Below, one piece after another: positions 29,077 through 61,431 of a DNA stretch of 64,000 nucleotides (the first letter of the stretch is position 1; the number at the start of each line of letters is the position of its first letter). Where the stretch lies: IMG/VR virus record IMGVR_UViG_3300006056_000001, positions 32,001 through 96,000 of that record. The stretch is one strand, 5' to 3'. A program made the translations under genes and the position numbers. Origin of the DNA: a virus. Lineage: Duplodnaviria; Caudoviricetes. The notes beneath the pieces are model-generated. The model had not been told where the DNA came from. It made no database searches and saw only the letters and a program-made list of their open reading frames with translations.

Positions 29077-31953
29077 TTACAAAAAAGTGACAATCACATT
29101 TGTGACAGTTTCTGTCAAATACGAAGTAGCAAAAGCTTGTGAAATTTCTGAATGTACTAGAGCAACAGGTACATTTTCCATTTGTTTATTGCTTCCTGCA
29201 GAAACAGATACGTCTTTTCTAGTCATCCTTACTGGTACAGCAGGTACACTAACACTAGCAGAAATACTAGAAGTAGCAGTAGTTGTGAATGTTGAGGGTC
29301 TTAATATTAAAGAGGAAGATTCTACAGAAGCTTGAGCATTTATACTATTTACAACAATACTTGTAGTAATAGGAGGAATTACAAATGTAGAATGTAAAGG
29401 AGCCAAGTTAAAATAATAAACACTTGTGTCTAATAGATTTTGAACTAAGTAACCTGAGAAACTAAGCAGTATTTCTTCATAGTCTCCGTTGTCTACATTA
29501 TACACATTATGAAAGTAAGTAATAAGATCATTTGCTTTTTGTATAATAGCAGAATTATTAGAATAGAGTCCCAATAGAGCTGCCTCTCTTGCTATTACAG
29601 CATACTGTATTTCAATAGTATTGTAAACGTACCACATTCGGTGGTACTTTAAGTAGTTATATGGATAGTAAGGAGCAGTATAAGTTGTATCTTCCGCGCC
29701 ACTTCTAACATCTCTTTCTTCTTCTGTTAAATGATATCCATTTCCTGCAGAAGGAGAAGCTACTGCACAGGACACGTCTGCTTCAAAATCATACGCTCTT
29801 GTAATTACTACTTCAGATCCAGTTCTAAATCTTACTACATTGCCTACAAAGAACCCTCCTGTTGCATTTTTTAGATGTATTTTAACTGCTCTTAGGTTAT
29901 TGGCGGGAGAGTCTATATATGATAAATATATTTGACCAGATCCGCCTGTTGTTAAATTTGTTACAGTTTGTAAAGCAGGAGTGCCTATAGCAGAAAGAAA
30001 AGATTGTGCTTCTGATTCAGTATTAAAATTTATACTAAAGAACCTTCTATTAGAAGTAGTCCGGCCGTCGTTATAAGCATTCATTGTGCCGTTAGCTGCT
30101 ATATCTCTAGCTATTTCTAGCATTTTTAATCCCTGTGTATCGGAAGGGGATTCATTTAATATAGCTTTAGCGGCAAAATAGAAGCCTAAGCATGTAGCTG
30201 CTTCTTCCCAAGGCCTATAGTGTGTTAATGTATTTAAGCAACCAGGAAGCTCACATGGAGTAAGTCTAGTCATAGCTCTTACTCTTTCTATTCCTCCTGG
30301 ATAAATAGTTTTGTTTAAATATTCTGATCTACTTAAATTTAAGTTATATGTTAGGGCCGTTTTCATCCATGTTTTTAATGGAGCGTATCCGGTAGACTCA
30401 TAAATGAAAGAGCCCCATTCTTGTACACGTCCTGCCGCTCTAGCAGCAAAAGTATAACTATTTACATCAGAAGGGAACCCGCCGTAGTTATCTGATCTGT
30501 TAGCATATATCCAATATCTACTGTACATTTTTAGGAACTCTAGACTAAAATAGTCCATTGTAACTAAAGCTTGTATAACAAATAATTTATTAGTATAGTG
30601 TTCTTTATCAGGACCAAATATTTTCTGATTATTTGGAACTGCTCTTGGAAGGTCATTGTCAGAATCTAGACCTCTATTGAAACCTCTATACTTCTCACCG
30701 TTGTTGGTAAACCACAAGGTACCGTTCCATATCTTACAGCCGGCATTAAAGAATGTATCCGGATCAATTGGTTGTCCTGTAGAGTCTATATACCAATTAT
30801 GACGTGTAGCTTGTTGTCTAGTGCAGAATTCTAAATAAGGTATCCAGTTATAGTTACATGTAGATAAGAAAGGCCATCCTTTCATACCATAGGCATAGTC
30901 TCTATATCCGTGGCTTCCAGCAGAAGCTGTGTCTGGGTTATTACAGTTAGTGGGCCAGTTATAAGGGTCTCTAAGGCCCTTCATAGGCCCTTCTAGGAGG
31001 TTTAATAATGTGTTGCTCCTGGACAGTGCATCTGCATCAGAGGTGATGTAGGAAGGTCTGGGAGGCATTATACCAGTAATTGGGAAGTAGGTCTTCCAAT
31101 TTTCTGACATAGCTAGTATAGGACCGTCTTGCTCTGCTAATGAAGTTGAAGAGCTATTAAAAGTTATAATTCCCTTATAGGCATGTGACATTCCAGCAGC
31201 AAATCTATTTCTTGTGGATATAAAAGGGTTTATAAGAGTATAAGTTCTATCTGTAGCAGAGTTCTCTGTTATAGAAGGTATTTTATACTCTTCCCAGTAA
31301 ATCTTTGACTTACCTCCTAATATTCTAAGGGTTACAGGACTATTTAAATTTACAAAAGGAGAGACGCCTTGGTTATTTTCAAGAGTCGGCTCAAATCTAT
31401 AATAGCCAAATCTAAAATTAAAATGTATAAAGTCTAAATTAGAATATCCATCTAAGACTAGTTCTACCCAAAAATATCTTATTTGTGGATCTAAAGAATT
31501 TGGAAAATACTTGAATAATCTAAGTCTAATAAAATGATCTTCTGGTCCAGATCCTTCTATCACATTACTGACCATTTCATTTAATGGTAAATTATACTGA
31601 ACTCCTTGTATTGTCATTTGCACAAGAAGACTACTAAAATTAGTTACTAACGCATTTGAAAGAACAAAAGGAATAGCCGTGTAAGTAGGACTTTTTGAAA
31701 TATTAACTGTTTTTTCTTCATTCCCTGCTAAATCTACTTTAAAACTTGCTTTTGCATATTTTATACCGCCGTTATCCCATCTAGCTCCTACAGGAGACCA
31801 TTGTATTTTTTGATTACTATTACCAGATAATGCTCCTGAAACAACGAGGTTATCTGTAGTTTGTAAATTTTCTGCTCTAGAAAAAGGTATTCCTAGGGTT
31901 ACTACTCCTGTTCTGGAGTTGGATGAGTTATTTTTTATTTTAGCAGTAGACAT
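29077..31953 (-). CDS. RIFT-barrel / PcRGLX-YetA-like (polysaccharide lyase-like) virion-associated protein
   Basis: N-terminal VTLGIPF...IQWSPVGARWDNGGIKY matches the RIFT-barrel pattern. Start moved to ATG 31953 because ATG 31974 lies inside the capsid terminator stem. Confidence 0.55.
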   Translation of the reverse strand: MSTAKIKNNSSNSRTGVVTLGIPFSRAENLQTTDNLVVSGALSGNSNQKIQWSPVGARWDNGGIKYAKASFKVDLAGNEEKTVNISKSPTYTAIPFVLSNALVTNFSSLLVQMTIQGVQYNLPLNEMVSNVIEGSGPEDHFIRLRLFKYFPNSLDPQIRYFWVELVLDGYSNLDFIHFNFRFGYYRFEPTLENNQGVSPFVNLNSPVTLRILGGKSKIYWEEYKIPSITENSATDRTYTLINPFISTRNRFAAGMSHAYKGIITFNSSSTSLAEQDGPILAMSENWKTYFPITGIMPPRPSYITSDADALSRSNTLLNLLEGPMKGLRDPYNWPTNCNNPDTASAGSHGYRDYAYGMKGWPFLSTCNYNWIPYLEFCTRQQATRHNWYIDSTGQPIDPDTFFNAGCKIWNGTLWFTNNGEKYRGFNRGLDSDNDLPRAVPNNQKIFGPDKEHYTNKLFVIQALVTMDYFSLEFLKMYSRYWIYANRSDNYGGFPSDVNSYTFAARAAGRVQEWGSFIYESTGYAPLKTWMKTALTYNLNLSRSEYLNKTIYPGGIERVRAMTRLTPCELPGCLNTLTHYRPWEEAATCLGFYFAAKAILNESPSDTQGLKMLEIARDIAANGTMNAYNDGRTTSNRRFFSINFNTESEAQSFLSAIGTPALQTVTNLTTGGSGQIYLSYIDSPANNLRAVKIHLKNATGGFFVGNVVRFRTGSEVVITRAYDFEADVSCAVASPSAGNGYHLTEEERDVRSGAEDTTYTAPYYPYNYLKYHRMWYVYNTIEIQYAVIAREAALLGLYSNNSAIIQKANDLITYFHNVYNVDNGDYEEILLSFSGYLVQNLLDTSVYYFNLAPLHSTFVIPPITTSIVVNSINAQASVESSSLILRPSTFTTTATSSISASVSVPAVPVRMTRKDVSVSAGSNKQMENVPVALVHSEISQAFATSYLTETVTNVIVTFL

Positions 31954-57182: not shown

Positions 57183-57266
57183 GGGGTGGGTCATGGTGGC
57201 TAGTATTCACTAAATCGGCTTGTCCGACGTGATTACTATTGGGTTCGAGTCCCAGTCGCTCCACCA
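57183..57266 (+). ncRNA. tRNA-like RNA with Ala-type acceptor (G3.U70), no canonical D or anticodon arm
   Basis: GGGGTGG/TCGCTCC-A-CCA acceptor; TTGGG-TTCGAGT-CCCAG T arm; long interrupted middle helix. Confidence 0.6.
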
Positions 57267-57324
57267 GTGCTGCGTGTTGGCCCGGTTGCTAGGTACCGCC
57301 GAAAGGGAAACCTAGCATATTTAT

Positions 57325-58234: not shown

Positions 58235-58366
58235 CCTCTAATAGTTTAAGCAAAACCCCGGGCATAGTAGTGCTTGCTGAAAGTACTGGATAGTGGAATT
58301 ATCTGGTATAATTAGTGAGTTACGAAACGTCTGGAGATGTAGGTTCAAATCCTACTTAGGGATCCA
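58235..58366 (+). tRNA. tRNA-like gene with a 67-nt structured segment in place of the anticodon loop
   Basis: Acceptor CCTCTAA/TTAGGGA-T-CCA, D stem GTTT/AAAC, anticodon stem CCGGG/TCTGG, T arm GTAGG-TTCAAAT-CCTAC. Confidence 0.6.
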
Positions 58367-60909: not shown

Positions 60910-61115
60910 TGGGCTTTCTAATTTTCTGGTGTTTACTTTCGTTATTGCCTGCTATTGCAGCAGTTAAAGCAGATTGTGAAAGAGGTGTATCTTTTATAAT
61001 ACTAATCTTAAGCTTCGTGCTTACGTTCATAACGTGGCCTTTATTTTTATATCTATTTTTCTATTATTGTTTTGCTGAACATCAATACTTATTTAAAAAG
61101 TATTATCCAGAATAG
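60909..61115 (+). CDS. Small two-TM membrane protein
   Basis: 68 aa, hydrophobic. Confidence 0.55.
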   Translation: MGFLIFWCLLSLLPAIAAVKADCERGVSFIILILSFVLTFITWPLFLYLFFYYCFAEHQYLFKKYYPE

Positions 61116-61431
61116 TGGATCTGGCCACTTAAAATAGGCTAATAAGCCAGAAGCGTTGTCAGATAGTTGACAGGAAGCGACTCCAAATCCTAGATGGATG
61201 TCTAGACATCTAAGTGCAGGCTGGTCTGGGATGTCGTTTGTAATTACTGTAGGTGGAGAAATCTGCCGAACAAGTGTACAAATCCTACGCTTACAGTTCG
61301 CGTTAGGCCGGGTCAATTTGTGAACTATTGATCTGGTCTTTAAGAGATATTCCCTCTTTAACCTGCTTGGGATAGGTTAATTCCCACGATAGCAGGACCT
61401 AGGGAAGATAGAACGACTGTCCTTTTTCTTT
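61116..61431 (+). ncRNA. Candidate ~300-nt multi-stem ncRNA
   Basis: Closing GATCTGGCC/GGCCGGGTC; inner stems GGCT/AGCC, TGTCA/TGACA, TAGATG/CATCTA, GTAGG/CCTAC, GGTGGA-GAAA-TCTGCC; 3' CCTGCT/AGCAGG. Confidence 0.55.

Follow-up and report, generated by a model that had tools for sequence, protein, structure and literature searches.

What is an 84-nt phage RNA that begins and ends like a tRNA for alanine, has no anticodon and carries no message? The gene of this RNA occupies positions 57183-57266 (+) of the window, i.e. the whole 64,000-nt stretch of DNA that was analysed, namely bases 32001-96000 of an IMG/VR virus record; this record, 189,716 bp in length, has direct terminal repeats and is rated complete. 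The initial annotation had read the RNA as a mini-tmRNA or a tRNA decoy.

Phage genome and locus

The phage has a myovirus gene set, with genes for the tail sheath, the major head protein, the portal and the terminase. ARAGORN called 25 tRNAs in the phage genome, 24 of which lie between 97.6 and 126 kb, and most of the called tRNAs have an encoded CCA. A normal tRNA-Ala(UGC) gene is present, and no tRNA-Asp or tRNA-Cys was found among the ARAGORN calls. Genes for SmpB, ArfB, Pth and a full tmRNA were also looked for in the phage genome, and none was found.

The element sits in a 170-nt gap (57155-57324) with co-oriented small ORFs on either side. The upstream neighbour is a 79-aa ORF, the downstream neighbour a Zn-ribbon gene (phrog_6053); except for the latter, the flanking ORFs gave no match to PHROG families.

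Structure of the RNA

The acceptor stem consists of a 5' strand GGGGUGG (G1-G7, 57183-57189) and a 3' strand UCGCUCC (57256-57262), which form seven base pairs (G1-C, G2-C, G3.U70, G4-C, U5.G, G6-C and G7.U), with U70 at 57260. Directly after the 3' strand come the discriminator A73 (57263) and an encoded CCA (57264-57266), so that the 3' end as a whole covers 57256-57266. The D region is reduced to an 11-nt linker, GUCAUGGUGGC (57190-57200). Its description as a stemless D loop holds in so far as a normal D stem is absent over the 11 to 13 nt found here; a weak mini-stem of 3 to 4 bp may be formed, however. RNAalifold proposed such a stem of 4 bp from four sequences, with two compensatory changes and, in three of these sequences, one broken pair.

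The D and anticodon arms are replaced by one long arm of 38 nt (57201-57238), identified by RNAfold and by covariation. Its outer helix UAGUA/UACUA (57201-57205/57234-57238) is followed by a U.U mismatch and by the inner helix UCAC/GUGA (57207-57210/57229-57232). Next comes an internal loop, UAAA (57211-57214) opposite C57228, and finally the apical stem UCGG/CCGA (57215-57218/57224-57227) with the cap CUUGU (57219-57223). The result is a 13-bp interrupted helix (5 + 4 + 4 bp) without an anticodon loop, all helices of which are recovered by RNAfold. The UAAA loop is separated from the junction by 10 helical layers, and in a tRNA the anticodon is presented at this same distance. The T arm UUGGG-UUCGAGU-CCCAG (57239-57255) abuts the long arm directly, and a variable loop is absent. 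The features of acceptor stem, T arm, helices and cap that the initial annotation had listed are thus all found where it had placed them. Folded alone, the interior arm (57201-57238) reaches -10.3 kcal/mol (z = -3.15), and none of 200 shuffles folds as well; for the whole 84-mer, z is only -1.28.

Detection tools and sequence searches

No credible call was made on the element by ARAGORN in its tRNA, tmRNA, mitochondrial, intron and relaxed modes, with only junk at thresholds of 70-80%. The Rfam tRNA and tmRNA models likewise gave nothing at E <= 10 apart from a 15-nt match to the T arm; RF00023 matches this T arm alone, at 5.7 bits. The best Rfam match is mascRNA with 20.3 bits, under the cut-off of 42.5. 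The canonical tRNA model RF00005 does not match, and no cloverleaf, D stem or 7-nt anticodon loop is present. The element is neither a full tmRNA nor a cloverleaf tRNA. The features of a full tmRNA (mRNA-like domain, resume codon, tag ORF and pseudoknots) are absent from the element. Nor does it have the layout of YrlA (RF02553), a permuted tRNA-like module in which a loop closes the acceptor stem and to which a Ro-binding helix belongs, as it ends at the acceptor stem and has no such match in Rfam.

These results bear on whether the gene encodes a true decoding tRNA, e.g. the missing Asp or Cys species, with an aberrant or intron-bearing anticodon arm. A phage that lacks both of these tRNAs and has tRNA genes with large inserts could accommodate such a molecule. 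However, no 7-nt anticodon loop can be drawn, the cap loop varies among homologues and the intron mode of ARAGORN finds nothing credible. RF00005 is silent on the element, yet it gives 39.7 bits to an insert-bearing tRNA of the same genome (G000:119438-119581). Moreover, the identity set is that of alanine, for which a normal tRNA-Ala(UGC) is already present. A decoding function is considered hardly credible.

Relatives were not readily found. BLAST of the element against 50,697 phage records gave no match, exact and degenerate pattern scans for close homologues found none, and one pattern scan for relatives returned only the ends of bacterial tRNA-Ala and tmRNA genes. A search for synteny in IMG/VR using the upstream 92-aa ORF, the 145-aa ORF and the major capsid protein gave nothing useful, and next to Zn-ribbon homologues of 70% identity or less no such element was found.

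Homologues and covariation

Homologues of the element were reached through the flanking proteins. Relatives of the Zn-ribbon protein are 90% and 76% identical, and those of the upstream 79-aa ORF 94% and 72%. In the related contigs, one of which measures 190,328 bp, the element is invariably flanked by the 79-aa ORF and the Zn-ribbon gene. The relatives come from the samples SRR5676446-8, SRR32608995, SRR14932550 and ERZ4210451. With a covariance model built from the window element alone (R1), the homologous elements score 104, 99.5 and 64.5 bits.

Five distinct variants, four beyond that of the window, were aligned with MAFFT without reference to structure (alignment A12). Across these variants, 98.4% of the cells are paired. 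Six of the 25 pairs have changed on both sides, with at least one such pair in each of the four helices, against zero to two in slid controls; in the long arm, compensatory changes are seen in four of 13 pairs. G.U pairs occur on the plus-strand reading only. G3:U70, A73 and CCA are invariant in all five variants, as are G1 to G4, and acceptor pairs 5, 7 and 4 vary yet stay paired. The T loop reads UUCRARU throughout, with T-stem pair 2 switching from U-A to C-G. The most variable part of the RNA is the linker, which has 13 nt in L275 and of which only G8, U12, G14 and C18 are invariant. In the long arm, CAC-UAAA-UC and GA-C-GUG do not vary among the variants, and the cap loop is variable (CUUGU, CUAGU, CAUGU or CCAAG). 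An anticodon-less RNA with the alanine identity set and the topology of a tmRNA tRNA-like domain (TLD), as originally described, is thus supported by the sequence, the folds and the five variants.

Based on this conservation, the element is almost certainly a real RNA gene. A decayed, functionless pseudo-tRNA(Ala), which the initial annotation had itself considered, would be in line with the missing ARAGORN and Rfam calls and with the modest z-score of the whole molecule. It is rejected because of the covariation, which extends to all four helices, together with the invariant identity elements and the T-loop pattern. In addition, the element is conserved as well as, or better than, the flanking proteins (72-94% identical), and its interior arm is far more stable than shuffled sequences. 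Decay is therefore rated very improbable.

The larger conserved unit

The conserved unit is not the 84 nt originally described but the whole 170-nt intergenic stretch (57155-57324). On the 5' side, a leader hairpin GGGUG-UAUAGG-CACCC (57162-57177, +) is predicted by folding, 5 nt upstream of G1. Every homologue has a hairpin at this position; in L278 and L275 its sequence is a different one. The last three to four bases of the leader, GUAC (57179-57182), can pair across ACCA with GUGC (57267-57270) at the start of the trailer; by variant, 4/4, 3/4, 3/4, 3/4 and 4/4 of these pairs can form in the alignment.

On the 3' side, the alignment of six variants of the unit reveals a near-invariant trailer (57267-57316, +). 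At least 22 nt directly after CCA (57267-57288) are identical in all six, and 33 nt (57267-57299) in four; this conservation exceeds that of the tRNA-like part, which differs by about 10% between variants. The trailer ends in a 7-bp hairpin, GCUAGGU (57288-57294) with ACCUAGC (57310-57316), which has a 6-nt indel at its tip and is followed by an A/U-rich run. Its sequence is found nowhere else in the 189.7-kb genome, which excludes a repeated box such as a promoter or terminator. Against Rfam it gave no match at E <= 10, an ORF search found none of 40 aa or more, and no covariation was seen in its stems. The trailer may be a processing guide, a transcription terminator or a separate small RNA.

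Three other readings of the trailer were tried and dropped. A small ORF was set aside since third codon positions are invariant and no Shine-Dalgarno sequence is present. For HDV-like or hatchet-type self-cleavage at CCA, no P1 complement was seen by eye and Rfam gave no match. Pairing of the trailer with the UAAA hairpin was abandoned as L275 shows no covariation for it.

In tmRNA, the linker is a contact of SmpB. A variable linker next to an invariant internal loop and an invariant trailer points to another functional site in this RNA. One explanation along this line is an SmpB-independent composite RNA, of which the tRNA-like half is only a processing or stability handle or a carrier, and of which the UAAA/C loop and the trailer do the work, e.g. 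as an sRNA released from the trailer by tRNA-type processing or as a site bound by a protein of the phage or the host. The sRNAs derived from the 3'ETS and the tRNA-linked RNAs of herpesvirus MHV68 are analogies for such a trailer sRNA. The composite molecule would account for a trailer that is unique in the genome and more constant than the tRNA-like part, for an invariant CAC-UAAA-UC/GA-C-GUG beside a changing D linker, for the absence of the TLD signature for SmpB (see below) and for the predicted leader-trailer stalk. However, if charging were irrelevant, invariant G3:U70, A73 and CCA would not be expected. Furthermore, the search of Rfam (E <= 10) offered no target, partner or family for the trailer, the trailer stems lack covariation, and invariance says little when only five or six close variants are compared. 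Overall, this explanation is judged unlikely, but it carries some weight as the main rival of the TLD mimic favoured below.

Comparison with TLD-only RNAs of phages

Message-less TLD RNAs exist in phages, which supports the initial annotation. According to Hudson, Lau & Williams (2014; PMC4131195), Mycobacterium phage DS6A has a 'TLD only' tmRNA, i.e. one without a CDS, and a molecule similar to it strongly inhibits tmRNA, perhaps by titrating SmpB. The DS6A RNA is listed in the tmRNA Website as tmID 11587 (Mao et al. 2009, as cited in PMC4131195), and it is the one TLD-only phage RNA named in the literature.

To place the window element, IMG/VR was scanned with a degenerate pattern for GGG...GGTTCGANTCC...CTCCACCA elements longer than a tRNA, which yielded many TLD-only RNAs of 78-89 nt. 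Their layout consists of GGGGNNG, AUUGGUUUCGAC, a helix, (U)AAAR, a short hairpin, a helix, GGAC, the T arm and CCUCCACCA. As MAFFT failed to align this family correctly, a model was seeded on three clean TLD-only members (R2). It recovers the DS6A gene at 56 bits (JN698994:28478-28560). A further model (R3) was made from 21 TLD-only members, including DS6A and excluding the window element; in the 21-member alignment, which was fitted to the model, 95% of the cells are paired and 17 of 23 pairs show double changes. Message-less tmRNA mimics appear to be a common, unannotated tool of phages against, or instead of, host ribosome rescue and tagging.

Three minor observations were made on this material. 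The DS6A gene (JN698994.1, 28478-28560) lies between gp33 and gp34 and is not annotated in GenBank. In the TLD-only helix, a closing U-A pair is preferred, followed by a purine-rich 4x1 loop (AAAA, AGAA, AAGG or AAAG); at this spot of U-A pair plus loop, UAA, UAG or UGA is read in 17 of 24 TLD-only members (alignment A8) and also in the entire clade of the window element, and this stop-like triplet may be either structural or codon-like. Finally, the pattern scan also caught a separate class of phage tRNA-Ala(UGC) genes of 79-80 nt, whose D arm is odd and whose variable loop has 9 nt (L025:40-119, L026:1686-1764, L022:2470-2548, L058:10974-11052 and others).

The window element and the DS6A type have much in common. 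Both are phage-encoded, measure about 80 nt and combine a G3:U70/A73 acceptor stem with a tRNA-type T arm. Their linkers fall within 11-13 nt, and that of the element shares the motif AUGGUGG with the DS6A linker CAAUGGUGGUCGA. Both have a helix of 8-10 layers, an A-rich 4x1 internal loop and a short capped hairpin; in both, the helix abuts the T arm, there is no message and there are no pseudoknots, and both were missed by ARAGORN and by annotation. In agreement with this, model R1 ranks TLD-only RNAs first (41.4, 37.3, 35.8 and so on down to 33.6 bits), against 29 bits or less for bacterial tRNA-Ala genes with an identical T arm.

There are differences as well. The DS6A-type signature UUCGAC/GGAC, which includes G19, G333 and C335, is missing from the element. 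The 3-nt spacer before the T arm, present in the DS6A type, is absent, the helix has 10 layers instead of 8, and CCA is encoded by the element and not by DS6A. The variable linker and the ultraconserved 3' trailer are also unlike the DS6A type. Model R3 does place the element at the top of its own genome, with 38.8 bits against 28.6 for the best tRNA. However, this is well below the 72 bits of DS6A and the 62.7-94 bits of true members, three of them from outside the training set. The homologues of the element score 34-39.6 bits, and canonical tRNA-Ala genes at other loci 39-41 bits. Of the family-conserved columns, the element matches 27 of 35, mostly those that are common to any tRNA-Ala. Six of the eight mismatched columns (20, 21, 23, 25, 99 and 104) are TLD-specific, corresponding to the UU.G.C linker and the G..C on the 3' side.

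Because its R3 score is in the range of tRNA-Ala and the TLD-specific positions are missing, the element is not filed as a regular member of the family. It is a divergent variant or an analogue of the TLD-only design. The term mini-tmRNA therefore fits the layout of the RNA and fails for the sequence signature of the family, given the absence of G19, the GA/GA pairs and C335. In short, the RNA type is already known from phages, and the present case is one without the usual SmpB signature and with an almost invariant tail.

Comparison with tmRNA and tRNA-Ala

Compared with the TLD of bacterial tmRNA (RF00023), the element has the same alanine identity and T arm, and an internal loop likewise follows helix 2a. 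At 11-13 nt in the clade, its linker agrees in length with the single-stranded one of 10-13 nt that connects helices 1 and 2a in tmRNA (PMC1168896). Unlike tmRNA, it has no mRNA-like domain, resume codon, tag ORF or pseudoknots. Also unlike tmRNA, it does not have the conserved nucleotides that contact SmpB (PMC8363625). Among the conserved TLD nucleotides U16-C21 and G333-C335, only C18, A20 and A334 have an equivalent in the element. The non-Watson-Crick pairs 19-GA-20/333-GA-334 of the tmRNA TLD (PMC1168896) are replaced by U-A/A-U, which lengthens the helix. The equivalent of G19 is a paired U, and the mutation G19C is reported to prevent the binding of tmRNA to SmpB (PMC8363625).

With a canonical tRNA-Ala or an alanine minihelix, the element shares the acceptor/T-arm half and the AlaRS identity elements, and the scores with the family model are similar. 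Unlike tRNA-Ala, it lacks the D arm, the anticodon arm and the variable loop. A message-less mitochondrial tmRNA of jakobids (Reclinomonas) was reportedly described by Keiler and co-workers in 2000. Like the element, it is reduced to little beyond the tRNA-like domain; unlike the element, it belongs to an organelle and to another sequence family, and its partner is a nuclear SmpB. Rfam, which includes this RNA as mt-tmRNA, gave no match here.

Possible function

The best explanation of the RNA is an alanine-chargeable mimic of the tmRNA TLD that acts on ribosome rescue, with a probability of about 0.5. Its parts do not stand equally firm. The RNA is probably chargeable with alanine. An action on trans-translation is more tentative, at somewhat under even odds, and canonical SmpB binding is doubtful and rated lower still because the signature is missing. 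The titration of SmpB suggested in the initial annotation is accordingly not a safe conclusion, with the signature absent and 38.8 bits against at least 62.7 for family members.

As a TLD mimic, the RNA would be transcribed together with the early or middle genes of the plus strand that surround it. RNase P would then cut at G1, processing on the 3' side would act at the encoded CCA, and the 84-nt RNA would result; the leader-trailer stalk may guide this processing. Next, host AlaRS would charge the RNA via G3:U70 and A73, and EF-Tu would bind it via the acceptor/T-arm half. Because the RNA cannot decode, its likely target would be the host rescue of stalled ribosomes. By competing with tmRNA, whether over partners or over empty A sites, it could keep phage proteins from being ssrA-tagged; alternatively, the RNA might accept the nascent chain without adding a tag. 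We only infer the processing, the charging and the effect on trans-translation.

Another possibility, instead of an SmpB sponge, would be a separate class of phage RNA, alanine-charged, anticodon-less and built on a four-way junction, with the UAAA/C loop and the trailer as its functional site. Such a class is considered quite improbable. In an extreme version, it could be a minimal 'tmRNA' that provides a stop codon only, so that one alanine is added and the chain is released untagged; in another, a tRNA-linked precursor could deliver a regulatory RNA derived from the trailer. The reading of UAAA as a stop codon was kept for this separate class alone, since in the wider family the U is usually part of the closing U-A pair.

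The RNA might also sequester, as a sponge or decoy, host factors whose site of action is the acceptor/T-arm half of a tRNA, such as toxins or defence enzymes directed at CCA or the acceptor stem, tRNA-modifying enzymes, AlaRS or EF-Tu. An intact 'top half' of a tRNA without decoding capacity would be well suited for this, and the phage invests heavily in tRNA biology, with 24 tRNAs, insert-bearing tRNA genes, and a Ro60 homologue with three YrlA-like mimics. However, no linked defence or counter-defence gene was identified, the neighbours having no known family, and a sponge would leave the long arm, the UAAA loop and the conservation of the trailer unexplained. A decoy for anticodon nucleases, as put forward earlier, is excluded among these targets by the lack of an anticodon loop; the cap loop, moreover, varies freely among homologues. 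Sponge functions in general are rated quite improbable.

Returning to the TLD mimic, the clade of the window element keeps the alanine identity and the shape and drops the nucleotides that hold SmpB. It can therefore show what is essential in this class of RNAs: binding to SmpB in spite of the missing nucleotides would mean that recognition is less strict than assumed, and no binding would mean that phages put an alanyl-tRNA mimic to a second use that does not depend on SmpB. From a practical point of view, it is one more RNA gene that is missed by ARAGORN and Rfam.

Other RNA elements of the phage

Several other RNA elements were observed in the genome. Within the window, positions 61114-61179 (+) match the Pistol self-cleaving ribozyme (RF02679) with 42.5 bits, against a gathering score of 34.5. 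At 58235-58366 (+), a tRNA frame with acceptor, D arm, T arm and CCA has an insert of about 67 nt that replaces the anticodon loop; its T arm was matched again in two related phage contigs (L274; L275 3556-3575). The 'tRNA-Pyl(cta)' called by ARAGORN at 30937-31010 (+) looks like a false positive, as both the T-loop consensus and CCA are missing and a 965-aa ORF of the opposite strand spans the whole site.

Outside the window, a Ro60/Rsr-like ORF (TROVE domain, 23.2 bits; 537-aa frame) is found directly upstream of three tandem YrlA-like Y RNAs (G000:C1 ~100983-101132 and 102004-102553; L271:505-1053 and L273). The latter score 56, 49 and 27 bits with Rfam YrlA, under the cut-off of 69 bits, and each is permuted, with the order T arm, 3' acceptor strand, CCA loop, 5' acceptor strand and D arm. 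The tRNA gene at G000:C1:119438-119581 (L272:139-282) was missed by ARAGORN; it has an insert of about 70 nt, its RF00005 match of 39.7 bits extends over 144 nt, and it may be the 'missing' Asp or Cys tRNA. Finally, a 93-nt tRNA-Lys(UUU) at G000:C1:97623-97715 stands out by its long variable arm, an uncommon feature in a tRNA for Lys.
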